A stretch of 63,081 nt of DNA, the filler included, from Hausera hauseri (taxonomy: Eukaryota): assembly GCA_046269625.1 (NCBI GenBank). It is 10 parts of 10 records of this genome, joined end to end, with 100 filler letters (N's around TTAATTAATTAA, not from the genome) between each part and the next. Parts side by side here need not be neighbours in the genome. Positions count along the whole stretch, not along the records: positions 20,382 to 24,774 come from JBJURY010604221.1; positions 24,875 to 34,998 come from JBJURY010234406.1; 8 more parts are not named here. One strand, given 5' to 3'. Positions within the stretch are counted from its first letter, which is position 1. Every line of letters starts with the position of its first letter. Of the stretch, positions 10,416 to 52,262 are shown piece after piece. Below the pieces are notes generated by a model. It saw only the letters and a list, made by a program, of their open reading frames with translations. It was not told the DNA's origin and searched no databases. The translations under genes were made by a program, and so were the position numbers.

Positions 10416-10487
10416 GTAAATAATAATATACATTTCCGCAGACGTTTTTGTTTATATTCACGCCGCACACATAAATACTGCTACAGT

Positions 10488-13499: not shown

Positions 13500-14950
13500 C
13501 AGATTATTGAACTCACAGAAACAAATATCCACCGACTGACAACAATATAAAACAAGCAATTTTATCGCTGATACTGATATTTCACTGTCCTCCTGAAAAC
13601 TGAGATTAAACAGAATTTCGATTAGAGCCGGTGTGAAAATCATCCGCTCTTGAATCCTCGTGTTTGTTTTAATGAAATCGACAATTTCTATCAGTAGAAT
13701 CTTGGTTAAAACGCGATTCTGAACTGATAAAATTGATTCAAGAATATCCGATGACTGTTGAATAAAATTTGTTGGTAATTATCTAAATAAAAACTTGGTT
13801 ATATTGTCATAAACGAGAGACATTTCAATATCATTGTCGGCAAAATCCAGAATTGAAATCATTTTAACAATATCAATAGGACTAATATTATCCTTTAAAA
13901 GTTGAATAGGTGTATTGGATAAAAAATATATAAAGAGCTCGATATTCATCAGGATTAAATTTTCGGATTACTGCTTAGTGTAACAAATCATTTTCAATCC
14001 TCATTTTCCTATAAATATTTCGGTAGAACGTTTCAAAATTCTCATCAATATCCATCTTGCAATCGGCATTGGACACAACATCAGCCAACAATTCCATTGT
14101 CTGCAATTGCGATACTTTATTACCATCGACAAATACATTCTTCAATATGTCGAGAAACATTGGATAATTTTGAGAAACCAGTTTAGGACTTCTTCTATAG
14201 ACTTCAAAGTAAATCGATGAGTAACTTGACAACAAAATTGATCGAAATGGATTTTCGTTGATATCTTTCAGGCCGACATAAACGTTATCCAACAAATGAC
14301 TATTCTCAAGCTGTTCAAAACCGGCATTAGATTTAATCAGTCGTTTAATTATTTTCAAAATGTTCATTGTTACTAGAACGTCATGGCTGCTAACCATTTC
14401 GTTCATTTTGAAAACGATTGTTGTTGGAAACAAATAAGAAGCCGAATTCGAATTTGAGCAAAACAATTTTCGCATAATCAAAATGTAAGGTAGTGTAATG
14501 AAAAACATTGGCAGGATAAAACGTTGTGGCAATTACCACAAGTAGAGTTCCAAAATGCTTTTTCTGTAGATTAGGATAACGCCCAAGATTGAGGAATTGG
14601 TTTACCGGGTAGAAATCAATAAGGCATGTCTGAATTATGTTCCTGAGAACAACGTATTGTGTAATCCGACAGATTTTGCATGAGCAGTTTTGTCGTATGG
14701 TATACATCCAGTAATATTCTGCTACCGTATTGAGAGAATAGTCAATTCCACTAGAAAGCGTTGTAATTGAAACATTTTTGATCGTGCATCTGAGGATCAG
14801 TACTACCGTTTTGTTGTGTAAGTTGAGTCTGTAGTCTGTGTAATCGGTAGTTATTACTCGTTTCTCATTGTGCGTAACCGCGTCCAATCGAATAAGTAAC
14901 TCGGATATTTGATAAACTGAAAAACAATTCACTGATAATTTTCTCGTCTA
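13500..14950 (-). pseudogene. Large intronless orphan gene, frameshifted and 5'-truncated near the Gypsy insertion
   Basis: ORFs 14390-14932 and 13975-14532 overlap, and protein-like sequence continues past the stop at 13975. Confidence 0.4.
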
Positions 14951-14952
14951 AG

Positions 14953-17245
14953 TCGACGGATTAAATTCTTAAAGCAGGGAGTTGGACGCAACTATTGATC
15001 CGACAAGGCGATAAGGAACGCCCGACCGTGCCCGACCAAAATGGGCCAAAGGGCACCGGCCGCAGTGGACACCACATCATTCCCTCGTGGCAAGGTTAAA
15101 ACTATAAAGAGTAAAAGAGACAGAAAGAAAAAACGCTAAACGAAGAGTGTCTGTGTCAGTTGATCTTAGTGTGAACAAGCCGTTGGGTGCCTTCTACTGA
15201 TTTTTCCCTGCTATACATGCAAAATAGGACTCTGCGTGGTTTGTCTGTATGCGGTGTATTTGCTTGTAGAGTTTGAAGTTGGGGAAAAAGATTGTCGGAT
15301 TTTGGTGTAAGTATTGTGTCGTGCAAAGAGGAGTTTGAATGAAGGAAAAAAGAAGGTGAAGGAGGAAGAGAAATTGTTGGCTGCGAATGATTAAAGGTAT
15401 TCAAGAGTGTTAGAAAACAATGGACTGACAAAATGTGTAGTGGCAGATGTAGGAGGAGAGACGAACATTGGGAAGGAAATTGGAATTGTGTTAGGCGAGA
15501 GAGTAGAAGTAGAAGACGAAACGAGGTAGTGGTAGAGATAGGATGATAGATGGGAATAGAAGTAGAAGGTGTGGAAAATGATGAAGCGGAACTAGGAGCA
15601 GAAGGAGGAGATGAAACTGGTGTAGCAACAAATATAGGAACAGTAGAAAGTGTAGGTGTGTAAAAAGAGGTTGACGTGTCGATTGGTGAAGTGTCGTCGA
15701 CAAAGAAGGCGGGCTTTAAGTTGGTAATATGCACTGCAAGTTCGTTGCCGTCTTTAGAAATAATTGCGTTGTGTGAATGCAGCTGTACCAGTTTATAGAG
15801 CCCCAGATACCGCGGTTGGAAACCGCACGGCGTTTGATTTTTTAGCCATACGAATTTTGCCGAATACAAGTCTTTGGGTAAATATGTTTTGTCTTTGTAA
15901 AGTAACCTGCAGAACGAATCTTTGCTGACCGTAAAAAAGTGATTTTGCGCCACCCGTATCGTTTCATCTGTAGGAGCGTCGTCTAGGGCAGTTAGTACGA
16001 ATAAGGATCATACAGGAGCTCCGAATAAGGCTTCAGTAGGTGAGCATCCCGTAGAAGTAAACGTCTAGTGTTGGACTCTGCCAGAATTCTTAGTGACGTT
16101 TTCAATATTCGGTGGAAACGTTCTAAAAGGCCATTCGACTGCGGTGATAAGGTGTAGTATGTATGTGATGGATCCCCAATCAGTTTTCAAGGGATTTGAA
16201 CAGGTTGGATTCAAACTGTGGACCCTGGTCCGTGGTGAGGAAACGAGGTGATCCACACCTGCTAGTCCATGTACGAATGAAAACGTCAGCTATAGTATCA
16301 GTGTTTGTGCTCCGCAGAGTGATGGCTTCTGGCCATCGAGAGGAACGGTCCATCATGGCGAGACTGAATTGATGACCGTTGTCTGGAGGAAGAGAGTTAG
16401 CGACGTCGATATGCGCGGATTCGAAACGCGATGTGCAGGAAAAGTGGAATAGTAGTGGCTTCAAATGCTTAGTTGTTTTGTATTTTTGGCAAACCACACA
16501 CTCCTTAACCCATGCGTGCACATCAGAACGCATTGACTTCCAAACTACTTGTCGATGGAGTAAACGAAAAGTGGCTTTAGCACCGGGGTGGTGCAGCGAA
16601 TGTACTCTGTTAAACGCTTGCTTTTGCTGAAGTCGTGCAAAAACTATTACGTAATGACCTGGTTTGGAAGTGTCTAAAGCCGCGCCGTCAACAATTGTGC
16701 AAGACTTGAAAGAACTAAGCATGTCCTGAGATGGCTGAATCTGTTGAAGTTGGGATTGAGTAAAAATCGTCGAAAAATGAATCGAACTAACCGACCTAGA
16801 TAAAATGTCGGCAACTAATTTATTAACTCCGTTAATGTGTTTTGTGTCGAAGTTAAATGTCGACAAGTATGATATCTGTCGTTCTTGGCATGTGGAAGGA
16901 TATTTCATAGCTATGATGTTAAGTAAGGGTTTGTGATCGGTCTGTATGGTAAAATGGCGAGCGACAAGTAGGTGGGAGAAATGCTTTAAAGTGAGAACAA
17001 TGGTCAATAATTCTCGATCGAATGTTGAATATCTAGTTTCATGGATGTTAGCTTGCAAGAGAAAAATTTTTGATTTTCTCCTTTGTGGATATGGTGAAGC
17101 ACAGCACCTATTGAAGTGGTTGAAGCCTCTATATTAAGGATAAGTTCCGCATCAGGCTTGTGGAAAGCGAGAATGTCGACGGTCTTAATTCCTTCGCGTA
17201 GCTTATCAAACTTATCAAGCAACTCAGGTGTCCACTGGATTGTGT
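14953..17245 (-). mobile_element. Gypsy (CsRn1/Kabuki-like) copy: RNase H, integrase, Ser/Pro-rich tail, probable PPT and partial 3' LTR
   Basis: YSTFDRELL, TDHKPL, HSLHHPG...CVVCQ, DRSSRWPEA, TDQGPQFES; purine tract at about 15201-15210. Confidence 0.9.
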
Positions 17246-17268: not shown

Positions 17269-20200
17269 GTGAATCGAATGATAAATGATAAATTCCGCCG
17301 TTATTTCTTGTCACCGCTGCCCACCTCAAACAAAGCCTTACTAACCGTTGTCGACGAGTCCACTGCTATCGAAATACTGGCAATAATGGCTGACAAATAC
17401 TTTGAGATTCTGCATATTAACAGTTCTCTCCCTATTGCGGCTTCAACCACATGTGCTCCAACTACAGACACAACATTTTTACTCAACAATTGCAAATGAT
17501 GCAGTAACAGTTTGAGAAGTTACAGCAGTCGATTTTGGCCATTACTATCTTCTAAATAATCTTCATGGGCCTCGACGAAGTGAAACCAGACCTTTAAGGG
17601 AGAGAAGCATTTCCAGACACACTGCTCGATCCATTTCACCTGGCGGATGCATTACTTGCTTCTATCACACACGATTTCGAAGGGATGCTAGGAAATGCTT
17701 TTTGAGTTGTCCGTTCTACAGCGAACGGTACGCTGTAGACAACCCTATTTGTGTCTACCACAATAAGTTCCAGTCACAGGCTAGATCATGCGTGCCTGAT
17801 TAGAAGCATTACAATGATAAATCTCTTCGCTTTTCTTCCTCTTCTTCCTTTTCTCCAAAACCTTCAAAAAAACTAATAGTGCCGCCAGATTTTTCGGCAC
17901 ATTCTGGCGCAGGCAATATCGCTCAATCTTCTGGCCGTTTCAACACCGCCTCTGCAGTCTTTCTGTTGAAAGCTGTACTGTTATGCAGATATATTTCACA
18001 TATCGACTTCCTTATAGACGCAGGAGCTGCCTTTTTGCTCCTTCCCTTGTCCTTTGTTCCTACATCGATTATGATTTCCTGTCCACCGTTTTTCAATGCC
18101 AGCGGTCAACCGTTGCACTTTACAGGAATCACGGAATTGACTTTCACATTCGCCAACTTGCCAGATAAATTTATATGGAAGTTTCACGTGGCCAACATTA
18201 AATCTCCCATAATAGGCTCAGATTTTCTTGCCGCATATGATCTATTGGTCGATTGAAAATACAGCTGTCTTTTAAGCAGGAACTCGATTGCAACTCCAGA
18301 CATGTGTCTCGTAGACAACTTAGCGAGCAATTCATTGCACTCATCTGTGAACATGTTGAACGCTTCTCCATCTATAAAAAACTTCCGATAAAGTCGGTAA
18401 TATTTCAGTTATGAACGACAATCATAAATCTATTCTCAAACAAAAATCCAAATTAGGCGTCGACAGTAGCGATGCAAGTTGCTTTTCGTCAATCACTGGA
18501 GCTGTTTTTTCTAATGATATACCTCATTCATTCTTGTCTCTAGACTCCAATCTTAAATCATACGTCACAACGCATTGCTTTCGCATAGTTAAAAAGGACG
18601 TCAACTTCAAGCCTCCATCCACAACTTATGATCACATATTAACAGAGCATCAGAAGCCGATCAAACAAAAGGTCAGACTTTTGTCGCCACGCAGACGTAA
18701 AGCTGTGGAACAGGAATTTAATGAACTGGAAAGGTCTGGCATCATTCGGAGATCGAATTCACTGTGGGCTTCTCCTCTTCATGTAGTGGTAAAGAAAGAT
18801 GGTACCTATATGCCATGTGACGACTATCGACAATTAAACAATCTAACTATTACAGATGCCTATTCACTGCCACTCATTAAAGATATTCTTCATAGCCTCA
18901 ACAACACCAATACCTATTCTACCATTGATCTGCACAAGGCCTACAATTAAATTCTTGTTGCCCCTGATGACATTCCAAAAACTGCTGCCATTACACCAGT
19001 TGGACTTTACGAGTATATTTTTATGCCTTTCGGTCTACGTAGTGCATCTCAGACTTTTCAGCGCTACATTGACACCGTTCTTTCTGGTCTTGACTTTGCA
19101 CACCCATACATAGATGACATATTAGTCTCTTCCAGCTCCAGCAAACAACATTATGAGCACCTTAGAATTATTTTCCAAAGAATGCATCAAAGCAACCTGC
19201 AAATTAATTTCGCCAAATGCAATTTCTTCCAGAAATGCGTCAACTTCCTAGGTCACATAATTACTCCCAAAGGTCATTCGCCTCAGCCTGATCGCTTACC
19301 ACAATTGAAAAATGTGACATTACCAATTACCACTACCGACATGAAGAATTTTTTAGAGACACTGCACTTCGTACATAAGTACGTGCCACACTGCTCCGAA
19401 CTAATCGCACCTTTTGCACACCTCTCATCTAAGAAGAAAAGACAACTAATCTATTGAACTCCCGATCTAGTTAATCAATTTGACAGCCTTTATGATGGTT
19501 TGAAATCCGTTTAAATCTTGGCTTTTCCAAAACCGAACGCAAAACCAATATTAACTACCGATGCCTCAACCACAGCCACTGGTGCGATATTACACCAAAT
19601 ATACAACTGTGTTGACGAGTCATTGGAATTTTATTCCCGAAAGCTCACACAACCGGAAAGCCAATACCCAACATTCGATCGTGAACTCCTGGCCATAGTT
19701 TTAGCGGTAAAGCATTTTAAGTATTTGCTCCTATCCCGTCAGTTCGTCATCCAAACTGATTATAAACCTCGATATCTTATCATGACGTTAAAACAGCCAT
19801 CACCCAGGCACGAACGTCAGATATCATATCTGTCGACATTTAGTTTTTCCATGAAATATATTTCTGGCACCGAAAACTTAGTAGCAGATATTCTGTCGCC
19901 GTAAACTCAATTACAGTTCAACCAATTTTTGCCTCTGAAGTCCTAAAAAGTAATCAGTCATCATCTGATATTCTCCAAGTCTTTAAATCGGTTGAGGTCA
20001 TCGATGGCATCGCCTACGACACATCCAACTCGACTAATAAAAAATCATTCTTGCTACATCACTACAAAAGACAACTTTCACGCATTTTCACTCTCTTCAT
20101 CATCCGGGTTCAAAAACCACATTTCGTCTACTGCAACGCCACGTTGTATGGCCAACTATGCGTACAGATGTACAGGTCTGGATCAAGGAATGTGCAGCAT

Positions 20201-20381: not shown

Positions 20382-21426
20382 GAAAAACTGCCTCAAAAGT
20401 TTTTAATAGATCCCTCTGGAAAGGGGAGAATCGAAGAATTTATAAGAAGGAGGCAACGTAAGTCTGTGCATTAAAAAAGTTGGCAGCCAGAGCATACCCT
20501 GACGTTACTACAAGGAATAACGCATTGTTAGCTCACTTCCAGTATGGATTGGAAGAGAAGTTGAGGACAATAATCTCTCAGGCAGATTCTCCTACGTTTC
20601 AAGAGGCCGTAAGGAAGGCGCGAAAAGCCGAACGAGACGCGGAGCTATATAGGTGGAATAAGTCTAAAAGTAGCAGTAGTAACTGCGATAAAAGAAGAAA
20701 CAATAGTACACAAAAGTACCAAAGTTACGACAGAAATAGAAGCCCTTTACAAACGTCAGCCACAGAAGCTGAATCAAACGTAGAAAAAAAGTAAGATTTA
20801 AGTTACGAAACGATGGAGAAAAGTTAAGTTATAAAAAGAAATCCAAAAAGGATGGAAGAGCGTTACCCAACATATAGTCTGAAGGAAGATTGAAATGTTT
20901 CAACTGTAATAAATACGGATACATAGCAAAATCATGCAGATCTCGTAGAGAAGACTCTTCGAAATCCAAGAGTAAACAAAAGAAGAAGGATTACACATCA
21001 GCCATGTCAGATGAATCATACGACAAGGAATATGAAACGGAGGTTAGTGCTAGCGAACATGAAGTTAAGAAAAAGGACAAGAAGAAAGAAAGTATCAATT
21101 ATATAAACGATGTACTATCCCACTGCATGAAGAAACAATTAGAAATCGAACTGAAAGATTTTCAAACACGACAAAGAATACTGAAAGAAAACAGCATTTA
21201 TATGATAGGGGATCAACCAGAGAAAAAGGTATCCCACCAAGGAAGAAAGAAAGGTAATAAGAAAATAATCGACACGGACGTTGGATTAAGAGAAACATCA
21301 ACAGAGCGGGAAGAGGTAGGAAAGAAAAAGAAGAGAGGGCGAAAGAAAAGTAACCTCAATACACCCTCATTAGATCAAGACGATGCTCAAACCACACAAA
21401 TATTTGACAAAGAAATATTAGAATAG
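20382..21426 (+). pseudogene. Gag (capsid C-terminal part and zinc knuckle)
   Basis: HFQYGLEEKLR...TFQEAVRKARKAE; CFNCNKYGYIAKSC (CCHC with H>Y). Confidence 0.85.
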
Positions 21427-21429
21427 GTA

Positions 21430-22618
21430 ATAAAGGATACAGGTATTATAGATCTGGATGAGGAAGACGATATCATTCAAGCAATAAAGACTATCGATCC
21501 CGATAACATAATCGATGTAGATAAAAAAAACCACCACGATACTAAAGATAATCACTAATAAAGAAACAGTAGAAAGGATGGATGAAATTTTGTCTTAATT
21601 AGTGTTATTGGCCCAAGATACCAGCCCGGTGAGGGAAATACCACGAACAATACTGGCCAAGGCCGCTGAAGATGAGAAAGGAGGAAATGAAACCATAAGA
21701 ATAACAGTAAGAGAAGGAAATCGAAATATGAGAGTTATTCGAATGAACGAAATACACGACGTACCAGCTTTATGAGAGAAGATAGAAGAGTTGGAACCAT
21801 TCTATCAAGGAAATCCTTATGAACTGAATTATTACGGAAGAACGTTATATAGTTATGATAAATTATTGAGAATTGGATGTAAAAGTAAGAACTATAATTC
21901 AATAATAATAACCGAAATACATGCAGAGGCGAGAGCTCAAGTAACGATTGATAATATCCTAAGGGAAATGAAACCGCAGGAAGTAGAAGGACCTCTCGTA
22001 GGTGATACGCAAGATGTTACGGTCCAAACAGAGGCTAAGAGACGAGGTAGACCAAAAGGAACAAAGATAAGTGATATTCGTAATAGGAAAGACAGAAATA
22101 AGGAAATGGTGAGACGTCTGTTGTTAGCAGGAACAAACGTTATGCCCGAATCGGTGGACATAGACCCGTTATTAAGAACTCTACTGGCTAAGTTACACAC
22201 ATCATTCGCTTCCTTTGATATGGAAGTAATAAATCCAGATGAACTATTCCAAACATTACATAACAGTATGTTGCGAATAAGTAGGCAATTCTATGACAAT
22301 CTCGACGAAGAACGGATAAACGAATTACACGAATTAGATGTTTTGGAAACGATGTACGCAACAGGGATCACACGGGCGAAAGCACAAACTGCTATATCTT
22401 ACCTATTATATAAAATAATAGTAATCAACCATCAAACTCAAAACTTAGAAGAAATTGAACGAAATATAAAGACAGGCTTCAAAATTCTGAAGGATACGTT
22501 AGGCAACTGGGTCCAATGTAGAGGTGGATGGTTGACTAGCTTAATGACTGACATAACAAGGTTAGAAAAACGTGGAAGACTAGTAGATACGCAAAATGAC
22601 TCAATCAAATACTCCTAG
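21430..22618 (+). pseudogene. Unknown helical domain X with AT-hook-like motif, apparently continuing the gag reading frame
   Basis: ORF 21791-22618 plus upstream decayed frame; KRRGRPKG; conserved in copy B. Confidence 0.7.
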
Positions 22619-24349
22619 ACAATGTGTCGCCGGTATGTCAATCATGGAAATCTTTCAGGTACTTTTAATATCGTCATTATTGATGCCAAGAGCTGTAGGT
22701 ATAGTGGCTTTCGATTGCTCAAAGCCTAGTGAAGGACAGAAGTACTCTTTAGCTGACTTAGAGAAGTGTCCAGAAGCCGACCCAGAACAACTATCAACGA
22801 CAAGTGGACTTACATATTGGATTTATCAAGAGTCTGAATTTATAAAAGTGAAAGTTACGGAATGTTACTTAAAGAAATCATTCTTTCTTTTCAACTGTGC
22901 ATATTCCGGAAATTCTGCCATTATCGAGCCCACAACACATTTTGAACCGATGATAATATCACGAGCAGAATGTCAGGATGCTTTTAAGATCGGCATAATA
23001 ACCATTCATTATGCACACATACCTGCAGTTCGGAACAGAATACAATACACCAGAATTTTTAGAGAAGGAAGAATTGATAAGACGATGGAAGGTACTTTTA
23101 TTGGAGAATATTATGATGCGGGAGGTACTATCGCATCAAGAACGATGGCAATTGAAGACTACCAGGTTCAATTGAAAGAATACGAAGTACTATTTGACTC
23201 ACAAACGAAATTACTGACAACTATGAGTGAATGCGAATACGATAATGGCGAATGCGACACCGGAGAGTCAAAAATGACATGGGAAACATCAGCAAATAAG
23301 TGTCAGTTAACGCTGTTGAAAGAAGGAAGACTTAACAAGACAGTAGGAAAAACGGCTGAGAAAATGGCGATGTATAAAGAATGAACGAAGGAAGTTAAGA
23401 TGACGGAAGTAGCTACAACGTGTATTCGGAACACCCATAGTAAATGATGCGATTTAAAGTCAATGGAGTGATAAATAAATGTAATGAAGAAATATCTAGA
23501 ACTAATTATAAAGGGATTTTTTTGTCATCAAAAGAAATACCTGGTGCTAAGACAAAGATAGATAAAAAGGACATAAAATTAACACAATATTTTAATAATG
23601 AGATTGATTTCTTAATCAACCATGTAAGGAAAGAGATTAGAGGTTTATAGAGAAATAATAATGAACGAGTGTAAATTAAACTATGAAATAATACAATACA
23701 AAATGGCCTTGGTAATTACGAATCTAGATATGGTAGCTCCGGTGATGTCCTTTGGCGATGGAGTAATCGGAGGAGTAATGGGCGAGGTATTAATAACCAT
23801 AGAGTGTAAAAAGATAGAGGTGTCAATTAGACCAACTGAAGAATGTACGGCAAAACTACCCGTAGTTTATCACTGAGAACCAAGGTATGTGATGCATGTG
23901 ACAAGAATATTGTTAGAATCTAACGGTAAGCCGACCTTATTGGAGAACTGCACGTTTAACATGTCACTTATGTTTAAACTGGATCACAAAACATGGATTA
24001 GAATGCCAAAAAGAGAACCGGTATCTAAACCAGCTACATTAAGCGTGATCAACCTGCAAAGAAAGAAGAGATTTGAACCGTTAACAGGAATATCGCAAGG
24101 GGGAATTTATACGCAACAGAATCTAGAAGATTATCGACCAATGTTGCTGTTTCCCCTACAGAGACAGAGTTATAACAGAACTAATCAGGAGAGTAATGTG
24201 GGATGGTGAAGGATCACCATAATGGAAACTGTAATGGGCAAAAATTATTTAAATAAAGTAACAAGGAATATTATGGAGAAAACGTGGGGAAGTTCTTATA
24301 TTTCGGCCAAGCAGCTTCTGGTTTCCTAGCGATATATTTCATTATTAGC
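22596..24349 (+). pseudogene. Chuvirus/herpes gB-like class III fusion glycoprotein (env)
   Basis: Signal peptide then AFDC...YSL...C, IYQ...V.ECY...NC, ISRAECQ, CEYDNGEC, GEVLITIECKKIEV...EECT.KLPV, VTRIL, GIYT, TM FGQAASGFLAIYFII. Confidence 0.85.
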
Positions 24350-24774
24350 AGTAGGGGGAAGGGAGGACACTGCACCAAGCTTATTTTCCTATCTCGAGAC
24401 CCCCCCATCCCCCAGGATCGATAATCAATAATTGTATATGGGGAAGATGAGGAAATCGATATTATCGATTGGTGCGGTCGGGGTTTCACTATTCCCACCC
24501 AAAAAAAATTTTCAAATATCGATTTTTCGAAAATTGTTCGAAAATTTTTTCAAAGGTGAAAAATGTGTATTTTTGAATTCTGTATTTGATGGTATTAATA
24601 GAAAATTTTTTTCGAAAAAATTTTTTTCGAACTCGAATATCTTTTCACCGAGTTTTCGAATAATTTTGGTTGGAAGGTCAAAAATGTTCAGTTTTTTGAG
24701 CTCTTTCGAATGGTATAGGTCGCAAGTCTGTACGACCTTTGGAACCGAATATATATCGATTCGAATATTTCGAA
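24350..24774 (+). repeat. Polinton-type terminus (AGTAG...GAGGACACTG) and subterminal AT-rich repeats
   Basis: Starts abruptly inside the env TM region; shares GAGGACACTG, AGGATCG.TAATCAATA and GGGGTTTCACTATTCCCACCC with 34589-34760. Confidence 0.65.
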
Positions 24775-24874
24775 NNNNNNNNNNNNNNNNNNNNNNNNNN
24801 NNNNNNNNNNNNNNNNNNTTAATTAATTAANNNNNNNNNNNNNNNNNNNNNNNNNNNNNNNNNNNNNNNNNNNN
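24775..24874. other. Artificial contig spacer
   Basis: N44-TTAATTAATTAA-N44. Confidence 0.98.
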
Positions 24875-24997
24875 CCCTATTAATCGTGCGTGCGTGTATC
24901 ATTTTTTCTACCCCATGACTCATCCGTGAACCAGGAAAAATTTTCTTCCCCCGAGGGTGGGGGGGTGTCTGATCCAGTGCGCTCACATCTACCTACT
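24875..24997 (-). repeat. Polinton-type terminus (reverse: AGTAGGTAGATGTGAGCGCACTG)
   Basis: Matches the termini at 34589, 37198 and 47914; interrupts the exonuclease-like ORF. Confidence 0.65.
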
Positions 24998-25420
24998 CGC
25001 GCATTTTATAAAACTTGCTAGCCAGCTCCTTATATGTCGTCCTTTCCAGTTTGTACTTTTGAATCACCTCTTCGTGATACACCAAATCACGAACTCCGAT
25101 GATTTGTCGTAACGGACATAAGATGTGTTTTTGCAACATCTCAAGAACTCCGGCTCCGACTACCAACTTATCCGTTAATATGCCAGAAATCTTCTGATAG
25201 AAAACGTTTAAATCCATTTGATTATTGATATTTGACTCCGTTATTCCGGTTATATGTGAATCAAAGTTATTTATTCTTTGTCTTGGCGTTATCATGGTGT
25301 ATAATAACGTGTTACCCTGTAAATCAATGACTGAACATTCCTATGGTGTAAGTTGATTATTCTGGTCGTAGGCCAAGTTCACGGCTGCGACTATGATAAC
25401 TCCATTGCGGACTTGCGATA
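24998..25420 (-). pseudogene. DEDD (REX4/ISG20-like) exonuclease-like domain
   Basis: ECSVIDLQGNTLLYTMITPRQRINNFDSHITGITESNI...KISGILTDKLVVGAG; ExoI acidic residues not evident. Confidence 0.7.
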
Positions 25421-25737
25421 ATCGTTTGTTAGGTTTACCAACTTAGTTTAGGTAATCCGGTTCGATCATGTCAAAGCATGTTCCGCGGGGGGGGGGTGAT
25501 CCACGTGGGTTCTGATTTTATTAATTCGATTCCTATCATTATTCTGTTAGTCATCGTATGAATTTTGAGGGTATTTCTTTTGATCAAGTTGAATTGGATT
25601 GTTATCCCATGATTCGGGTCCAAGTTGAACAAATCTCCTGTTTGATTTGTATTATTGTCTTTAGTTTTAATCTGGAATTTTCCTATGATGTCGTAGATAT
25701 TAAGACTGTGGAATTTTTCTGAGAGATTAATTAGGTC

Positions 25738-27570
25738 TTAAAGAAGAAATAATGTAGCCTTGATTATTTGGACTAGAGCCAATGATCGATTACTTTGGGA
25801 ATATCCCTTAAAATTGTTGCGTATCTGCTGTACCAAAGGAAAGTTATGACTATAGGTGTTGTCGTTTATCACCATGTGATACTGATTTGAAGGATTGGCT
25901 TTGATTAAATAATTTTTGGCATTTTCATACCAATTTTTAATGCGCTGTACTTTGTGCATGTCCACCATCTTGACTGGTACTGTAAAAAAACTGATAAATA
26001 ATGTAACGGTTATCATAATAATTTCGATAATCGTTATTATTTTAGATTTATCATTATTTTTCATGGTAACTGAATAATATTCAGTCATCTTAATTCTTCG
26101 GATTGCATCAACTACAATCCGCTGAAGTTGTTGGCAGCTTGGATTGTCTGTATCCAGGATATTTGGTATACGTCGCATATTTATCCTAACCCAATTTGGT
26201 CTGCGACGTTTTCGTATAAAAGCGATTATCTTTAATGCGAATGCTAACATAATTAATAATATTATGGGACATACAGTACTTATTATTATTAGAATGAATA
26301 TAACTTGCTTTTGGTAGCAGTACACTTTTACTTGAGTTTGTGCTCATTTTCTTATTTTTTACTTTTTGCTGTATTTTGGCTTTTGTCGACGCTGCCAGTA
26401 ATTTCATGGAAATTATCGTATTATCATCCTCGTATAGTTACAGTGTAACCGTATATTTCTTATTGGGATTTAGGTCGGCACACGGTACTATTGTGTCATC
26501 TGGCGTGATTGTGCCTTTTGCTATTATTTTTGACCTAGCTTACAGATGAATTTAATTTTATAGAAATTTAAATCAGGTTGGATAGCTAAGACTAAGGAAG
26601 TGAGCGTGGGAGATATTGTAACATTTTCTAAGACAGAATGTTTTTGACTATAGTGTAAAGCGTGAGGTCGAATAAAAACAGTCATTTCTCCGATGTTTAT
26701 CTTTGTTTTATTAGACAGTAAGGAGTTTGCGAAAGGTGTCGTGACACTTGGATGCTGATCGTAGTGATATTCAATGACATTTTTGAGTGGAACATGTGTT
26801 CTGGGCCCTTGGTGAGTTAAAGTCTTGATGATCTCTGGATCCTTTCATACTAACATAAATTCTAAATCATAGGTTCTTCTTCGTAGGGCATTACAGCAAA
26901 CTTGGAGGTACCTATCGTTTAATTAACATTTTGTCGGTATCCTCTGCTTCTTCTGCACGTCCGTAAGTTTTATACTTATTGCTCTGTTCTATTCAAGCTC
27001 TATCATTGTTCTAATCTCGATGCAATTTCGTCCACTTTTAAAACCTGTCGGCTCTACAGTAAATAGAGTTATTATTATCTCGTCTAATTTGGTTGCATTC
27101 ATTATTCGTCTATTAGGAACCTGTATGATACCTTGGCACTTGGTGTATTGCCACTGATAGCGATTCTTATGTCTTTTGATTAGAGTATAGTATATGAGAT
27201 ATTGGCCAGAGTCATCTACTATACACTCCATTGTGTTCTTCAAATAAGTAAGACCGCAATCATATATTCGTTGTTTCGGACTCCGCTCGTAATCATGCTC
27301 GTGGATTGTTTGAATTCGTATCATATACTGGTTGGGTAACCTGTCAAATATCATGAATCTTATACATTTTTGACCTTTTCTTGTATAAGTTATCTCATGA
27401 TAAATACTTTCCATCAGACTGCTTTCTAACGTTTCGTTTGAAGGGATTGTTTTCATCCATGGATCAAGCGGTTTTGTCGTTTGAGCTAGTAGGCCCGGTA
27501 TCCCTATAAGAACCAGTAGGCAGAGGTATCTGAATACTTCACAATTTGGAGTTTTATTACTTCTCTTTTT
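25738..27570 (-). pseudogene. Post-integrase membrane protein: signal peptide, beta-rich ectodomain with FN3-like repeat, TM helix
   Basis: FRYLCLLVLIGIPGLLA|QTT; LENVTISPTLTSLVL...YKI...DLNPNKKYTVTL; VIFILIIISTVCPIILLIMLAFALKIIAFI-RKRRR. Confidence 0.65.
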
Positions 27571-27573
27571 CTA

Positions 27574-28720
27574 GTCGATGGCTCGTACAAGTTCTTGTTC
27601 ATAGTTTCTTAATTCTTTCTCCTTAGATGCAAGTTTACACCTGTTGACATGTACTTTAATTATAGTGTTATTCTTCTTTAAATATATATTAGGTAGATCC
27701 ACTTTTTCTACTTCATACGGTCCCTTGTATGGTCTATCTAACTTGAATGTTTTACCTTTCTTACAACATCATCTTATCTCCTACTTTAACCGTTGGTTGC
27801 TTGGTATTTTTATCATAATACTTTTGTATTTCAATTTATAATCCTTTTGATTGTTCTTTATTACTTTATACGCTAATTGAAAACATTCCTGCATTAATTG
27901 TTTATATTCTTGTACCGCCATTAACTGAGATATAAGACGCACATTGAAATCCAAATCAATTGGTAATCTAGCATCTCTTAAATACATCATATAAAAAGGT
28001 GTTTCTTTGGTATGTTCATGTACAGACGTTCGATTCACAAAAACACACGCATTAATACACTCATCCCAGTCATCTTGTCTTACATTAACTACCGTTTGTA
28101 GCTTTTCTTTCAGATCTCCTATGTACCTTTCAACCATTCCGTTGTTCTTTGGGTGTCCCGGAGTTGATCGCAATTTCAATATCTTCATAATATCGTATAT
28201 TGCCTGTATTACCTTACCAGTTAAGTCAGATGCTTGGTCTGTTAACACAATTCGAGGAGCTCCATAATTAAATATGATGTTTTCTACAAATTTTTCGGCT
28301 ATCGTTTCAGCTTTCATATCTGGCATGGGTAGTGCAATGACTCATCGGGTGAAATAATCTATAAATACTAAGATATATTTGTTCCCGTTTCTTGTCAATG
28401 GTAAGGGTCCTGTTATATCCATTGCTGTGAATTCAAACGGGGTAGGTGGATTGCCCCATACTTTCAGGTGACCTTTAAATTTGCATCCCGTATTCTTTCT
28501 TGTGGCACAGAGTTTGCAGCTATCACACCAATCTTGGACATCCTTGGCTATGGTTGACCAGAAGTATTTCCTTTTTAGTTTGTTTATCATTTTTCTTACT
28601 CATTGATGTCCACCTAGTAATCCGCCATGATATTGGGTCAATAATACTGCCATATTCCTTTTTGAAATTACTAGTGGGGTCCATTTTCATGATAATATAG
28701 AAATCCATCTTTTTCTTCCT
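27574..28720 (-). pseudogene. Gypsy integrase
   Basis: YFWSTIAKDV...CKLC, MDITGPLP, DYFTR, LTDQAS, NGMVER, KLDRPYKGPY, VHVNRCK. Confidence 0.93.
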
Positions 28721-30200
28721 ACGCATCCCTAAATCGGGTTAAATGACGAGCCAGTTTTCTATCCTTTGGTACAATTTTATTTTGTATATAATTTCTAATG
28801 GCTTTTATTTCTTCATCTTTTCGTTGATTCTCTTTTATCCACTCTACGGATCCATCCATGCTCCATACCGCTGAAATTACTTCTTTCTTTTCTACCTCTT
28901 TCTGTGGCATTCTCGATAAATAATCCACGTTTGCATTTCGTGTGCCTGACTTATACTGAAAATCTAGCGTATAAGGTTGGAGTTTTAAAGCCCATCGTAG
29001 TAATCTACTATTTGGGTTCTCCTGCTTTTTTAGCCATTGCAGTGGTTTATGGTCTGTGTAGATTGTCAATGGTTTATTCTCACTAATATACGGTAAGAAT
29101 ACTTATAAGGCGAATATCACCGCTAATAATTCCTTTTCAACAACGGCATATTTCTTTTGGTGTTTATTTAATTTTCTTGACGTATAAGCAACTGGATGTT
29201 TCTTGTCATCTTCGCCCTTTTGTGATAATACCGCTCCTACTCCATAATCGCTTGCGTCCGTTGCCAGTACGAATGGTTTAGTCATATCTGGATAAGTCAG
29301 GATAGGGGCGTTCAATAATCATTCCTTCAGGTTCTAGAAGGCCTTTTTACACTCACTTGTCCATATTTTCTTTTCTAAATTTTCACGTAATAATTTATAT
29401 AGTGGTTTGGCTATTTTACTAAAATTCTTTACGAATATTCGATAATAATTTGCCAATCCTAAAAATTGGCCTAATTCATTGACAGTAGTGGGTTTTGGGA
29501 AATCTTTAATTTTATTTAATAATCTATCTTGAGGTTTTACACCATACCTATCAACTCGATGTCCGAGAAAATCAACTTCGGTTTGAGCAAATGAACATTT
29601 CTTCGGGTTTATTTTTAAACCCATTACTTCACATTTATCAAAGAGATCTTGTAAGTTCTTCAAATGCTGTTGGAAATTCGAAGATGCTATGATTACTTCA
29701 TCGATATATACCATAGCATGTGGTGCATCTAGAAGTAATAATTCTGTTCCTCTTTGAAAAGTCGGGGGTCCATTTTTTAATCAAAATGGCATTCCATTGA
29801 ATTTCCACAACCCTTCTCCTATTGAGAAGGCCGTTTTCGGCTTATCCTCCGCCTTTACTTCTACTTGCCAATATCCTTTCTGTAGATCAATTGTAGTGAA
29901 TATGGTTGAGCCGTGCAACTTGCGAGTATTTCGTCAATCCTTGGTAGTGGGTACGTGTCTGTTTCCGTTATTTTGTTTAACGCTCTATAATCTACACAGA
30001 ATCTCAGCTCCAACTTTCTTTTTTACCATCACTACTGGAGCCGTCCATGCGAAACAGCTGGGTCGTATTATTTTGTTTTCCCTCATTTCATTCATAAATT
30101 TACTAGCTTCTTCCTTTTTATTATATGCCAGTCTGTATGGTCGTTTTTTTATAGGTTTGTTTTGACCCTCCTTCAACTTGATCGCATGTTATATTACATT
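28719..30200 (-). pseudogene. Gypsy reverse transcriptase and RNase H
   Basis: [54 protein letters not shown]. Confidence 0.95.
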
Positions 30201-30250
30201 CATCGTTCCTAAATTATAATCATTTTTAGCCAATCGATTATTATTTTTCT

Positions 30251-31198
30251 CTAATTATTCTTTACATAAGATATATTACAATTCTGTAATTTTTCTTTCC
30301 AGTTGAAGTTGGTAGCTTCCTGCTCTTTATTTATATTTACATTTCCTTTCAATTTCTTCTTTATTAATTTGTCGATCTCATCTACTTCTGAGATTACTGA
30401 ATTAATTGCTTCTTTCAATACTTCTTTAACATCTGTTGCTTTCCCAAGTCTCATATTCCTTTTCAACCATTTCTCCTTTGCTGCCGTATTACAAATTCTC
30501 AGATGAATTCTTCCCTTCCTTATCCTGTCTATATGTGGTGCAACAATAATATTATGCTTCTCCATTATTTGTGGAAACGGTTCAAAGTGCACGCAGCTTG
30601 TCAATAATCCATACTCTATTTTACCGGGCATTACTATCTCTGATTGTTGTGGAATTATGACGTCTTTAATTAGTGAAATTGATCCTTCATATTGATATTC
30701 AAACCTTCTTAGTTATCCAGTTTTGACATCTATATACACATTATCCAACTGATATAATACATCACATTCGATTAGTATTTCGTTTGTTAAGTTTTTGGCC
30801 ACACTTATGATATGGCTTATTATTTGGCCACAGATTTTAATTTTTGCATCTAAAACTGTCTTTATCTCTTCCTCCATACCAAATGCTCCCACATTAATCA
30901 ATGTTTTTTCTGGTTTTCGTAATCTACTCACCAACGCCTTGGGTAATTGACTTTCCCCCATTATAGTGGTAGTGGATCCCGTATTTATTGGGGCCGTTAG
31001 CGTGTGTCCGTCTATCTCGATATCTATTTCTGGTTTCAACACCGACTGGGCCTCGTTCTTCTTCTCACTCGTTTTGCACGTAGGCTCACGATCATATGAT
31101 GCGTGTTTTTCTTCGTAATCCTGTTTTAGGCGCAATACTTGATATGTGGGATACATTCCTCCATGTTTTACATATTGAGGGGCTGAAGGACTTAACAT
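30251..31198 (-). pseudogene. Aspartic protease plus PR-RT spacer, preceded in frame by a PSAP-containing segment
   Basis: IEIDGHTLTAPINTGSTTTIM (DTG>NTG) and EILIECDVL (ILGxD motif). Confidence 0.8.
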
Positions 31199-31439
31199 TC
31201 GCTCGTTATATATTTGTCCGTGATATTTACCTGCCTGGTCTAACTGAGGTAAATCAGTAACCAGTTTCCGTTTATACTTCTGTCTTCGTAATTTTAACGA
31301 AAATCTTCTAAGTTTTGTTAAGTATCTGTCACTTCTCTGTTTGATATTTAATCATATTCTTCATCATCATTTTGGTATTTAGAGTACTATATGGCAAATT
31401 TTTCTCAATATCTTTAGTCCTTCCTTTTCATTTTGCATC

Positions 31440-32888
31440 ATGATTTGCTAAAAAACAAGTAAAAACCGCTGGTATTACCGCTATTAAGATTTCCTATGAG
31501 CATCATACTGTTGCATGTATTCCATAAGCCTTAGTGAGTGTAATGAATATTGTTCGTAGAGTACTAATGGTAAAATATATTGCTAAAATCCCTGAGGCAG
31601 CTTGACCAAAATATAAAAATTCGGTGTCTAGTAATATTCTAGTTACTGGTATTACGTACCAAGGATCCATATTATAAACTACTGGTAATTTTGCAGTACA
31701 TTCCTCCGTTGGCCTAATGGCTACTTCTATCTTTCTACACTCAATAGTTATAAACACTTCACCCATCACTCTTCCGATCACCCCATCGCACAATGGCATA
31801 ACTGGAGCTACTATGTCGTTGTTGGTTATTACTAACGCCATCTTATTCCGTATTATTTCATAATTTAATTTACATTCGTTCAGTAAAATTTCCCTATATA
31901 AACTTCTGATCTCTTTACTGACATAATTGATTAGAAAGTCGATTTTATCCTTCTTACCTATTTTTGTTTTAGCTTGAGCTACCTCTTTAGTCGAGAGGTA
32001 TATGCTTTTATAGTTAATTTTAAACATTTCTTCATCACAATTATTAATCGTTCCCACGATTTTAAATCGCATCATCCCTTCGGAGGTTTCTGAATATGCT
32101 ACCGTTGCTACTTCCGTCATCTACACTTCTCTGATTCCTTCTTTATATGTTGTCGATTCTCTTTCGGCTGTTTTTCCTACCGTCTTATTAAATTTCCCTT
32201 CCTTTAATAACGTAAGATGGCACCGATTCGCACCAACTTCCCAAGTCATTTTAGATTCTCCAATATAACATTCTCCGTTATCGTATTCGCATTCATTTAT
32301 AGTTGTCATGAGCCTGGTTTGCGAGTCAAATAGTCCTTCATCTTTTAATTGAACTTGATAATCTTCGATGGCAACTGTTCTTGGCGCGATAGTACCTCCC
32401 ACGTCGTAATCCACTCCTTTCAAAATACCTTCCTTCGTCTTATCTATTCTTCATGCTCGAAAGATTCGAGTATATTTTATTTTACTTCGTACTGTCAGTC
32501 TTTGTGCATTTGGTATCGTTATTAGTCCGATTTTAAAAGTGTCTTGGCATTCGGCTCGTAATATTATTATTGGTTCGAAAGGTGTTGTTGGTTCGATAAT
32601 AGCAGAATTCCCGGAGTAATATGCGCAATTAAATAGAAAGAAGGATTTCTTTTCGTAACATTCTCGAATTTTAACTTTTATAAATTCCGATTCCTGGTAA
32701 ACCCAATACCTATAGCCACTAGTTGTTAGTAATTGTTCTGGGTGCGCTTCGGTACACTTTTCTAGATTAACCAATGAGTACTTCTGTCCTTCTTTAGGCT
32801 TTGAACAATCATATGCCACCACGCCCATGGCCTTAGGCATCTATATGGATTCTATCAGTAGTAACTGTAATATTTTCATGAATGTCAT
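31440..32888 (-). pseudogene. Class III fusion glycoprotein, copy B (internal deletion of about 370 bp)
   Basis: VVAYDCSKP...; GRVMGEVFITIECRKIEV...EECTAKLPV; TM FGQAASGILAIYFTI and EILIAVIPAVFTCFL. Confidence 0.85.
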
Positions 32889-32899
32889 CCCGTCTAAGC

Positions 32900-33870
32900 C
32901 TTGTTTTGTATAATACTTGGTTATTTCGTGGCTGCTGTTTCATGTGATCCTCCTTCAGGTCTTATTCTACTATTCATTAGACTTGGTATCCATCCACCTC
33001 TACATTGCACTCAGTTTTCCAAAGTATCGCGTAAAATTTTAACTGTTAATTTTATATTTCTTTTGATTTCCTCCAGATTTTGTGTCTATTAATTAATAAC
33101 AATTACTTTATATAATAAATAAGCAACAATTGTTACTTCTTTTTCTCTAGTGATACCTGCCACAAACATCTTTTCCAATATATCTTGTTCCTGTAATTCG
33201 TTAATTCTATGTTCACTGATATTCTCGTAAAATTTTCTGCTAATCCTCAGCATATTGTTATGCAACGTTTGGAACAGTTCATCGGGAATAGACACTTGCA
33301 TATCGAACGATGCAAATGATGTGTGTAATTTTGCTAACAGCGTTCTCAACAATGGGTCTAAATCTATAGCCTCTGGAATCGTATCAGTTCCTGCCAATAA
33401 CAGTCGTCGCACAGTCTCTTCATTCCTATCTCTTTTGTTTCGAATATGGTTTATTTGAGTTCCTTTTAGTCGTATTCTTATTTTAGTCTCAGTTTGTACC
33501 GTAATATCCTGTGTGTCGCTGATTGGTGGCTCCTCTACTTCCGGTGGTTGTAATTCCCTTATTATATTTTCTATCGTTTCCTCGGCTCTTGCGTCGGGGT
33601 GTATTTCGGTTATCGTGATTGGGTTATAATTTTCACTTCTACATCCAATTCGAAAGGAGTTTATCGTAACCATACAATGTTCTTCTATAGAAATTTAATC
33701 CATATACTTTTTCCTTATAAAATGGTTCTAATTCTTCGATTCTTTCTCGCAATGTTAATATATCATCAGTCTTATTCATCCTGATAACTCTTATATCCTG
33801 ATTCCCTTCTTTCAGTGTTATTCTTACAGCTTCATTTCTTCCTTTTTCATCTTCAGCTACTTTAGGCAAG
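32900..33870 (-). pseudogene. Domain X, copy B
   Basis: DPLLRTLLAKLHTSFASFDM is identical to copy A. Confidence 0.75.
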
Positions 33871-34588
33871 AATAATAATGCATACCTTTTAGCTTCAAAT
33901 TCTGAATATTTGGAATATGTAATGTAACATCAATGTTATTTAAAGTTAAAGTATCATCAGTACCTGAGATATCAAAACAAAATATTAAATATAAATTTTT
34001 ATAATTTTTAAAATTTAATGGAGCTTCTACTTTATATTTTTTACATAAATTAACATAAGATTGATTACGTAATATTACATCATTTTTACTTTTATCAAAT
34101 GCATTTCTATTAATTGAATAATAATTATCATTTAATAGAATTTGTAAAGAATATATTTGTTTATTATCTTTATTTTCTTGTATAAATAAAGAAGAATTTT
34201 TATTCAATTTAATTTCGCTACCTTTAAATCCTATAATTACACATATTAGTAAATAAGCTTAATTTGGTAATTTTGTTGAAACATTTAAACCTTGTTTATT
34301 ATGTAAATTAGTACAAATTATTCTTAAATAATCTACGAATATTAGTTTATTAATATTCAATCAATTTATTAATTTTACTTCTGCTTGCCGATTTAATGTT
34401 AATTTTGGTATATGGAATTCTAATTTCTTTAAAGTCAAAGATCCTTTAGTATCTTTATCCCCCAAAAATATTAATTCATTTGCAATTTGTCTATTTAAAG
34501 TTGGTAATATGTGAATACATAATACTCTATTATAATTTTGTAAAAATCCATATAAATATGGTGAAATATTCCTGTAAACTTTAATTTG
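33870..34588 (-). pseudogene. Polinton major capsid protein (double jelly-roll) fragment
   Basis: LYGFLQNYNRVL...LNR, LKKLEFHIPKL, NYKNLYLIFCFDIS; extremely AT-rich. Confidence 0.65.
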
Positions 34589-34760
34589 AGTAGCAAGATG
34601 TGAGGACACTGAGCGTATATAAATTTCCTAACTCGAGGACCCCTCTAGGATCGCTAATCAATATTTTACTTAGGAAAATCAGGCTCAGCCGTGGTTTTAC
34701 TATTCCCATCCCCAGAAAATCAATTGGCCCAGACGGGGTTTCACTATTCCCACCCCCAAT
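34589..34760 (+). repeat. Polinton-type terminus (AGTAGCAAGATGTGAGGACACTG)
   Basis: Interrupts the capsid frame; homologous to 24350-24500. Confidence 0.65.
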
Positions 34761-34998
34761 TTGTTTAAATTTTATTAAGTTGATATAAATACGCCTGTGT
34801 AAGTGTCACTTGCGAAAAAAGTCAACATTTAAATGTACACTATGACAAAACATAAGACAAAGAATTCTGTACAAAATATTTATTAATATAACATATACAA
34901 ACAATCAAATATTTATGCATTCAATACAATAATGTCCATATGCGACACTTTTGTTTTTATCAACCCAGTGTCGTTTGTCGTCGAAGGGATCTAGAGCT

Positions 34999-37197: not shown

Positions 37198-40100
37198 AGT
37201 AGGTAGAAGTGCGGGCTCCACCCAACTTTCCCAAAAGTGCTCAGATCGACCTCGGACCTAGTTTTCCCACCTATGTCACAATTCTGAGCATTTCATGTCT
37301 CGAGGTCAGAGACCCCTTCAGGGAAAGAAGGTCGAGCAATGGACTTTGAACCGAGACCAATCGGTCGAGCCGGATAAGACGAACAAAAGTTATCGGCGCC
37401 GCGGAGCCGGAAAATGTAACCCGGCGGCACAGGAGGTGGAAGAAGAAAAACGGGCAATGTGCAACTGTCAATGCAACACATTTTTATTTGTTTTTAGTTT
37501 AACAATTACTTTAATTTGTTTATCACTCCGAAATGTTCGCAATATCCAATGTATTGCATCTCCCACATACATGATGGTGGATAATGTCACAATGAAATGG
37601 CCAAATATTATTCAGTGGCCGAGGACACGTACCTGTGTCTCGTGTGTTTTATTCAAGACACATTCCCGTACGCCGACTTTTGAGATACACAAGCATCATC
37701 TCGGTCCGTTCACGCGGTCCAAGATGGCTGTGCATTGCCCCACATCCGCGATACTGTAGTAGTAGTAGAGTGCATGACGTTGATGGTTGCCATAGTTTAA
37801 TGGAGCAGTACTATGGCGCCACAACGGTGCACGGTAAACGGGCCTACGTTTGTTCCGGTTGTTCTATAGTTGATGAAATCAACTATGAACAATTTTATAA
37901 CCAGCACAAGGACCACTTAAACCAGTTTCAGAGGTCCAAAACGGATATAGTGATGTCGACAAGAAAAACCAGTATCCCTTCAACAAGTAGAGAACGTCAG
38001 GCCTCAACAAGTCTTGACGAGTGCATCCGAAATAGTACCGAACAGTAGCAGCAGCAGGAGGAACCTTCCATAACTATCAAGTACGATCTAAACAAATCGT
38101 ACGTGGACCTGAAAGTAAACATGTCTTGGACAACAACACTACAGCTGGGGCCTGTTCCGTCAAGTGTGCGCAGCCGGTTGGAATTAGAGGTGGAGAAATT
38201 CAAACTCAACAACTGCAAAGTGGAATATTATTCACTTGCAGAATTTGAAAACGTTGAAGGTGACAGGAATCAAAGGTATATGTCACATCGAGCCGTACCG
38301 TATTAGGAAGATTTTATTGCCGATGTAGGCGAAAAATTGGATGATAAAATCGACAACTACACGGAAAAGGGTAGTGGATGGCGAATTATACGAATTGTCA
38401 CACTCGGCTTTATCATAACAAAGTCGAGTGACGTGGTATACTTGTCTGGACGATCATTCATACCGACACCTGCATCTCTAAAGCAGTCTCTGGTGGTAGT
38501 GAGTGTACAAAATACTGACGACGACGACGAATACTGTTTTCTGTACAGTATACTGGCTGTATTGAAGTACAGCGAAGTGAACAGATATCATGTAATCGTC
38601 GAAATCAGTATCGGCAGTATTTTTCCGAATTGTAATTTGATGAATGCTGCATGCCGATGAAACTGAAAACTATTCCGGCTTTTGAACGGCATAATCCGAC
38701 GCTGTCAATCAACGTTTTCCGGTACAACACAATAGTTGAGATACTGGAAGATGAAGATATTTATAAGAACCGCCATGTGGACATAATTTATCGCAGTTGG
38801 AACCCCATTGGACGCTCGGTAAATTTGTTGCTGTTGGAGCAGGCCGAAAAATTTTATTACGTGACAGTGACAAACCTGGATAGACTGTTGAACATGCAGC
38901 ATGACCAGTTCATCAAAAAGCGAATACGATTCAAGTGGTGTCTTGTATGTCTGCATGGATTCAGATCGGAAACAACGTGGGAAAAACATGTTACGCTATG
39001 CAGACAAAACGGATCAGGGACAACAATGTACGTCATGCCCGTCATAAGGGAACTCAGATTCATTGATTGCTTTTAAACGGACAGTCCGGCATATGTGGTG
39101 TATGCCGATATCAAAGCAATTCTACCACGGCACAATGTATACGACCAAAAGCACGTTCCAATTGCCGTCGGTATGTTGCTAGTACCAATAAAAGCCCCGG
39201 ACAACCGCAGTATTACATTTTTTGTGGTTGGAACTGTGTGCGTAATTTCCTGCTGCAGTCGGAAACCATAGTGGAAACGGAAATTGCGCCGTGTTATTGC
39301 AACAATTGCAATAAGCCATTCATTTTGGCAGACAAATATCAACCGTTGCTTTTCGCAGTCACCGATGAATGCTATATGTGCCACAAAATAATATCGTTTG
39401 ATGCACAAGAACGGCTCCTACCGGATCCCGACCATTTGACCGGTTAATATTTGGGAGCAGCATGTAATTATGCAATTTAGCAAGGCGAGTGCGACCATTC
39501 CTGCCGGTGATCTTTCATAATTTCCGAGGTTATGACTGTCACCATATTCTCAAATGGGCCATTAGCGTCTTTCCGCACTGTGAACTGTCCATAATCCAAA
39601 CGACAATGGAGAAATACCTATCACTGTTGGCACGAGTAAACCGATTCCAGGTACGCTTCCATGATTCATTGCAATCTCTCAATGAATCATTGGCAAAGCT
39701 GGTAAATGCCTTGCCAGATGTGCGAATAGCACTGATACATATTTCCATATGACTTTGCAACATAATATAAGCGACTCCGGACAACAGAGGAATTACTGCC
39801 GACAGGTATCACACAGGATGAATGCCGGAAAGCAGAGGTGTTGGACAAAACTCGGATGTAGAAACATGTTGGATTACATGTTCGTGTATCTTAAACTAGA
39901 CGTGTACTTATTCGCCGATGTGTTCGAAGCATTTCGGGCCGAAGCGCTGGCGGAAGATAGGTTTTATCCACTCAACTTTTATTCCATACCCGGAATAAGT
40001 TTGGCGTCAGCCCTAATGTGACTGGATAGAGACATTCAGCTGCTGCAAGACCAGGAAATTTACCTAATGTTTGATGTTGGTATTCGCGGCGGTCAGTGCT

Positions 40101-41659: not shown

Positions 41660-41759
41660 NNNNNNNNNNNNNNNNNNNNNNNNNNNNNNNNNNNNNNNNN
41701 NNNTTAATTAATTAANNNNNNNNNNNNNNNNNNNNNNNNNNNNNNNNNNNNNNNNNNNN
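41660..41759. other. Artificial contig spacer
   Basis: N44-TTAATTAATTAA-N44. Confidence 0.98.
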
Positions 41760-44277: not shown

Positions 44278-44463
44278 GGGATAATTAGTACACTTCTGAT
44301 TGGAAATTAAAATAAAATAAATGTTTCATATTAAGTTATATATACTATAAATTGAAATATGACAACTTATTTGTCGGTCTTGAGAAAAAAGTGAAGTCTC
44401 CTTACTCCCTTATAAAGAAGTATTCTAAACGCTACAACAACAACAACAACAACTATAAATCAC

Positions 44464-46236: not shown

Positions 46237-46336
46237 NNNNNNNNNNNNNNNNNNNNNNNNNNNNNNNNNNNNNNNNNNNNTTAATTAATTAANNNNNNNN
46301 NNNNNNNNNNNNNNNNNNNNNNNNNNNNNNNNNNNN
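46237..46336. other. Artificial contig spacer
   Basis: N44-TTAATTAATTAA-N44. Confidence 0.98.
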
Positions 46337-52255: not shown

Positions 52256-52262
52256 TAGCAAC

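Follow-up and report, generated by a model that had tools for sequence, protein, structure and literature searches.

We analysed a 63,081-nucleotide stretch of the Hausera hauseri genome (assembly GCA_046269625.1; hereafter the window), in which short contigs are chained by N44-TTAATTAATTAA-N44 linkers. Two of these contigs hold what are very probably two copies of one Ty3/Gypsy retroelement family carrying its envelope glycoprotein (Env) between Gag and Pol. Copy A lies on the + strand of contig 20382-24774 and copy B on the - strand of contig 24875-34998; since these are separate contigs joined by a linker, genomic adjacency of the two copies is not shown. They are 71% identical in nucleotide sequence (A 21665-23917 vs B 33857-31627), with a further 56-nt match in the transmembrane region. 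Both are dead and truncated: they carry frameshifts as well as main-frame stops (12 in the Env of A, a count that takes in out-of-frame stretches, 5 in the Env of B, and those given for the Pol domains of B in Table 1). The first-pass annotation had called the element potentially infectious and, the copies being dead, this could apply only to the family.

Copy A reads Gag, a domain hereafter called X, and Env. A protein search with X returned a single match among 3114 candidates, P0002 (ENA, 1130 amino acids (aa); 42% identity, E 2e-46), and an HMMER scan with X, covering 1.84 billion representatives, yielded no real relative besides it; a second HMMER match, P0003, was rejected as an unrelated repeat protein. 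P0002 is a single open reading frame (ORF) in which Gag with a CCHC knuckle is followed by X, a hydrophobic stretch and the beginning of Env (Pfam order PF00098, weak ubiquitin, weak Bcl-2, PF24664), with ~780 aa from the Gag start to the Env signal. Copy A is colinear with it over four tblastn blocks (20382-20644, 21572-22546, 22641-23348, and 23378-23659), which upholds the order gag-X-glycoprotein first read in A. The CCHC motif attributed to A did not hold, as its knuckle is degenerate, while P0002 has an intact one at 197-212 (PF00098, E 2.5e-4). A Gag with a zinc knuckle, a Ty3/Gypsy feature, is thus present through P0002 and the colinear copy A, and the N-terminus of P0002 weakly matches 6taq, the Arc capsid of Gypsy descent (E 0.039). 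Env directly follows Gag-X in two independent sequences, A and P0002, with no Pol between, and its place in this family is thus not 3' of Pol. With P0002 or an Env alignment as the query, locus scans of metagenome and viral contigs turned up no relative, and no RNA holder was listed.

Copy B contains X, Env, protease (PR), reverse transcriptase (RT), RNase H (RH), and integrase (IN) on one contig without N gap, and their Pfam matches fall in this order on the - strand, as originally read. The order PR-RT-RH-IN, with a Gypsy-type RNase H and an H2C2 integrase, is that of a Ty3/Gypsy Pol. Overlapping A, B and P0002 with their Pfam matches gives Gag-X-Env-Pol, bearing out the layout deduced from the two copies, although this order is put together from the three sequences and not read in one molecule. 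Mosquito BEL/Pao elements also carry chuvirus-like glycoproteins (PMC13524379), so that Gag-X-Env could have come from an Anakin-like BEL/Pao element that had captured its glycoprotein from a chuvirus, or from a Gag-Env element that is non-autonomous, in either case without relation to the Gypsy Pol. This we regard as extremely improbable: no BEL/Pao-specific Pfam family was matched in A, B or P0002, the Gag resembles (weakly) the Gypsy-derived Arc capsid, and the Pol adjoining Env is of the Ty3/Gypsy type. Elsewhere in the window, one contig carries two further decayed Gypsy pol remnants back to back, neither with an Env (16180-17133, - strand, and 17804-19904, + strand).

Table 1. Features of element copies A and B, with positions counted along the window
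Copy	Feature	Position	Strand	Evidence
A	Gag capsid region, start lost at contig edge	20382-20794	+	tblastn to P0002 88-182, 52-67% identity
A	Gag zinc knuckle (degenerate) and charged linker of low complexity	20878-21426	+	Sequence; no Pfam match
A	X first half, possibly ubiquitin-like	21695-21922	+	Homologous P0002 473-522 matches PF00240, E 0.031
A	X second half, likely Bcl-2-like helical domain	22094-22555	+	PF00452 and PDB matches
A	Env: hydrophobic, signal-like stretch at 22623-22718, ectodomain, beginning of transmembrane region; stops, frameshifts, truncated	22587-24349	+	PF24664; hydropathy
B	X, ubiquitin-like and Bcl-2-like parts (putative), 5' end truncated, no Gag	32960-33857	-	71% nt identity to A; tblastn to P0002 518-758
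B	Env, internal deletion; two C-terminal hydrophobic segments (31592-31533 and 31520-31434)	31374-32912	-	PF24664, BDV_G, hydropathy
B	105-aa linker and aspartic protease (domain ~31036-30746), active-site motif degenerate	30716-31351	-	PF09668 E 2.4e-5, PF00077 E 5.8e-4
B	PR-RT spacer, at position of Burro dUTPase-like domain	30254-30712	-	Position only
B	RT and RNase H, 7 stops in main frame	28722-30239	-	PF00078 E 5e-26, PF17917 E 3e-39, PF17919
B	Integrase (H2C2 and core), 5 stops	27571-28680	-	PF17921 E 1e-15, PF00665 E 4.9e-12
B	Second membrane-protein ORF, integrase frame, 11 stops	25741-27570	-	Hydropathy
B	DEDD 3'-5' exonuclease-like ORF (ISG20/PolC type), degenerate	24996-25370	-	PDB matches

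At the Env-PR junction of copy B, the Env tail matches PF24664 positions 544-625 of 653 (E 1.8e-7), reaching 31374 beyond the first hydrophobic segment, and the protease frame opens at 31351. The gap is 22 nt, leaving no room there for a long terminal repeat (LTR) or a gag. The first-pass annotation had given about 450 bp between the transmembrane region and the protease, too little for a gag; measured from the end of the Env match to the opening of the protease frame, the distance shrinks to these 22 nt. The region 31200-31500, where an LTR or target site duplication (TSD) would have pointed to nested elements, showed none, and the longest sequence that the junction shares with the rest of the window is one 14-mer. 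We then have to consider that copy B could be a chimera, in which deletion or recombination had linked the Env end of one family with the Pol of a gag-pol Gypsy unrelated to it. Copy B is demonstrably rearranged: it is without ~370 bp of Env relative to A, and its 5' end is fused to a double-jelly-roll capsid fragment (33860-34600, - strand, PF21738 E 3.5e-5), labelled here as Polinton/Maverick-like. The Env tail and PR also lie in different frames in this decayed copy, and the junction is not spanned by any contig listed from another copy. Yet the join would have had to fall within 22 nt of the end of the Env match, leaving a 105-aa open linker and no gag or LTR remnant, and its outcome would equal exactly the order published for planarian Burro, where env lies in frame with gag before it and pol after it (PMC6431247). 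Gag is, moreover, fused to Env without Pol between in A and P0002, and coverage by contigs of run X1 is continuous across the junction. We consider the chimera improbable.

The X1 contigs (80% likeness) covered all bins of 26228-34001 with a summed depth of 1334-25926. The two Env-PR bins (4201 and 7192) are within the range of the Pol bins, while repeat-like bins at the contig ends reach 44206 and 132244, and the flank at 34002-34339 has a depth of 19.6. X1 depth is not copy number, and X1 may be the source sample; its coverage over the junction gives weak support for Env-Pol continuity. Very high contig depth was seen at both ends of the B contig.

The Env of copy A matches PF24664 (Monjiviricetes fusion glycoprotein) over positions 4-543 of 653 (E 8.4e-49, stops read as X residues), and the copy ends inside the transmembrane region, at 24348. 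The pieces of Env in copy B match the same family (E 4e-8 and 3e-22) and BDV_G (E 0.0014); there was no PDB sequence match for Env. These matches support membership of Env in the chuvirus/glycoprotein B (gB) sequence family, in agreement with the chuvirus-type glycoprotein proposed at first. Its assignment to class III relies on Pfam membership and PMC13524379, because the structure model was unusable.

For domain X, PF00452 (Bcl-2) matched the C-terminal half in all three aligned members, the best E of 0.017 falling below the cut-off. Both PDB matches of this half, among hits with E up to 10, were Bcl-2-family chains (human BOK, 6ckv, E 0.17; 5vmn, E 0.61), and a three-row profile of X had BOK as its sole match (E 1.7). 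In the alignment of X with BOK, AGITWGK of BOK pairs with TGITRAK of X and both contain the pattern W-x-x-x-R-G-G-W; we take these stretches to be BH1- and BH2-like. The three X sequences are homologous, hence their Bcl-2 and ubiquitin matches are not independent. An NLR match for the ubiquitin-like part was rejected as chance, and an ESM Atlas search with the X of copy A gave no usable match. The comparison of A and B speaks to the function of X: dN was 0.15-0.19 and dN/dS at most 0.12 in four of four in-frame segments (a fifth row, 'Env mid', 9 codons and out of frame, was excluded), with third codon positions holding most differences, and in the Bcl-2-like part the proportions of nonsynonymous and synonymous differences were 0.15 and 0.84 (the latter saturated). 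X and Env evolved under purifying selection, and X was therefore a working part of the family. It is likely a ubiquitin-like plus Bcl-2-like module, i.e., judging by its sequence matches, a cell-death regulator of the Bcl-2 type as in planarian Burro.

We compared the family with known systems using parts of three papers: PMC6431247 with its section on Burro, the text and supplementary file 1 of PMC13524379, and part of PMC5408684. The Gag-Env-Pol layout, termed non-canonical in the first-pass annotation, is not new, having already been published (PMC6431247, PMC13524379), and the element adds one decayed family to a known group. Burro/GYPSM1 are giant Gypsy elements of Schmidtea mediterranea, with a relative in Dugesia tigrina (PMC6431247). 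As described there, Burro has a CCHC Gag first, a Ubi2/SUMO-like and then a BCL2-like domain directly before Env, and then PR, a spacer, RT, RH, and IN, as here with a possible ubiquitin-like and a likely Bcl-2-like part, and its Env resembles mononegavirus fusion proteins. The differences are in size and additional domains. Burro ORF1 spans 4873-5140 aa, versus the ~780 aa between Gag start and Env signal in P0002, in which no BIR, MATH, ankyrin, Smc or AAA Pfam match was obtained. Burro has two or three knuckles whereas there is one here, and at the place of its dUTPase-like domain between PR and RT copy B has a 153-aa spacer that gave no dUTPase match; WDHD1 matches of this spacer were rejected as chance. 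Gag, Env and Pol share one frame in Burro, while here Gag-X-Env are one ORF in P0002 and the Env and PR frames differ in decayed B. The giant ORF1 domain block not being found, we speak of a compact, Burro-like relative and not of Burro itself.

Errantiviruses of Nematoda, Bryozoa and Platyhelminthes have only an ENV of the HSV/gB type (HSV, herpes simplex virus), in the order GAG-ENV-POL, and nine out of nine flatworm elements in supplementary file 1 are ENV_HSV, with 1 to 215 copies (PMC13524379). Compared by description, they share with our family a Ty3/Gypsy Pol and a gB/chuvirus-type Env between Gag and Pol; they are intact, whereas A and B are decayed and truncated. In the non-canonical endogenous retroviruses of nematodes (Sacco et al. 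2022, as cited in PMC13524379), Env likewise precedes Pol and the glycoprotein is likewise RNA-virus-derived. By domain order and Env type, the family likely belongs to the GAG-ENV-POL group as a compact, Burro-like member. This suggests Gag-Ubl-Bcl2-Env (Ubl, ubiquitin-like domain) as the core that Burro-like elements conserve, with the giant domain block as an addition to it.

We thus hold, with high though not complete confidence, that a single compact, Burro-like family of Ty3/Gypsy type with the order Gag, Ubl and Bcl-2-like X, chuvirus-type Env, PR, RT, RNase H, and integrase gave rise to both A and B, now dead and truncated. A number of results weigh against this. P0002 ends within Env, and Gag, Env and Pol never occurred in the same sequence. 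Of the 30,446 X1 pieces 16 were listed, and none of these runs from Env into PR; the divergent contig that comes nearest matches only 30716-31227. Searches for long proteins were negative with Env (0 of 2308 candidates, weak evidence since P0002 was also missed) and with the linker-PR segment (0 of 1108, again weak evidence). No LTR, primer binding site, clear polypurine tract or TSD was found for A or B, both of which are truncated. As to X, the Bcl-2 and ubiquitin matches are both sub-threshold, and the ubiquitin match was obtained in P0002 only and not in A or B themselves. AlphaFold models from three-row alignments had a predicted local distance difference test score of 41.7 for X and 30.7 for the N-terminal part of Env, and Foldseek with the X model returned nothing at E 0.001 (BOK, at rank 4 with E 1.3 and TM 0.19, was not counted). 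A short repeat is common to the 3' flank of A (24350-24500) and the 5' flank on the B contig (34589-34755), and is not shown to be an LTR.

An intact member of such a family would make a single polyprotein threaded through the endoplasmic reticulum membrane. The hydrophobic stretch after X would serve as the signal peptide of Env and, once cleaved, as a tail anchor for Gag-Ubl-Bcl-2, which could keep capsids at the Env-bearing membrane. The C-terminal hydrophobic segments of Env would bring the chain back to the cytosol, where Pol would come next, in frame or via a frameshift. Enveloped particles might then pass between cells through class III fusion, with the Bcl-2-like domain delaying the death of the producing cell.

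Two ORFs that the first-pass annotation did not mention follow the integrase in copy B. One, a second membrane protein, starts directly after the integrase and has 610 codons, 15 cysteines, 7 N-glycosylation sequons, a signal-like stretch (27543-27478), and two hydrophobic segments (26325-26206 and 26049-25963). It has no significant Pfam or PDB match. Its first 193 aa are scored as lipocalin-like by ESM Atlas language-model features (scores 0.85-0.89, recognition 1983), with all ten of the ten best family matches in one clan, a result that one third of shuffled proteins also reach; the N-terminal region is possibly lipocalin-like, and we treat this as a lead only. The other ORF has no Pfam match, and three of its four PDB matches are DEDD exonucleases (2p1j E 0.0047, 7yw5 E 0.063, and 1wlj E 0.078).

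Do these ORFs belong to the element? Identical X1 contigs of single-copy depth match 25055-26580, and four X1 joints with a shared depth of 12.1 run in colinear steps from 25178 to 27689, suggesting one diverged copy (we infer a single record) that links the integrase to the 3' ORFs. This coverage and these joints suggest that the second membrane protein and the exonuclease belong to the family, of which they would probably be accessory cargo. The same data bear on a possible misassembly of the B contig from short reads of diverged family copies, which would make artefacts of its exact junctions, that with the 3' ORFs among them. The contigs are indeed short and the family very large (27056 X1 records, only 1512 of them at least 99% alike), yet mixing copies of one family would preserve domain order, and the single-copy-depth contigs and the four joints point to one diverged copy. 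We judge misassembly very improbable.

Neither 3' ORF was found described for Burro-like elements in the literature covered: the section on Burro in PMC6431247 speaks of neither a second membrane protein nor an exonuclease behind IN, and the word 'exonuclease' is absent from the text of PMC13524379, whose figures and six other supplements (of seven) were outside our scope and may show them. The closest parallel is with the LTR elements Juno and Vesta of bdelloid rotifers, which captured a DEDDy exonuclease as ORF3 behind pol (PMC5408684). There the exonuclease is RNase D-like and stands in place of env, whereas here it stands beside Env and is nearest to ISG20/PolC. Target-cell choice has been called elusive outside Drosophila (PMC13524379).

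One may go further and read the family as a compact two-glycoprotein element, with a class III fusogen, a membrane-anchored attachment or lipid-binding protein of lipocalin fold after the integrase, and an ISG20-like exonuclease. A gB-like fusogen is paired with a separate receptor-binding protein in herpes- and paramyxoviruses; we did not find such a pairing described for an LTR element in the literature covered. We regard this extension as speculative and rather unlikely. If the lipocalin-like attachment protein were real, it would offer a testable handle on the choice of target cells by these elements.

The remainder of the window holds several other features, and no tRNA gene was found in it. 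An uninterrupted TAF2-like ORF of 945 aa (643-3480, + strand, PF25316), strongly diverged from human TAF2 (E 2e-17), is either an intronless gene or a retrocopy. A TBP-like fragment lies at 10350-10874 (+ strand, PF00352 E 1e-7), and a fragment resembling the proteasome protein PSMD5 at 13975-14532 (- strand, PF10508 E 2.7e-12), near a Gypsy remnant. The region 37200-47240 contains three partial repeat copies, two of them inverted, with 75-91% identity, and amid them a remnant of a protein-primed DNA polymerase B (40188-40958, PF03175 E 1.6e-4); repeats and remnant are possibly Polinton-like relics. Lastly, 48344-52300 is occupied by ~4 kb of a simple repeat of 4-base units with extreme AT skew.

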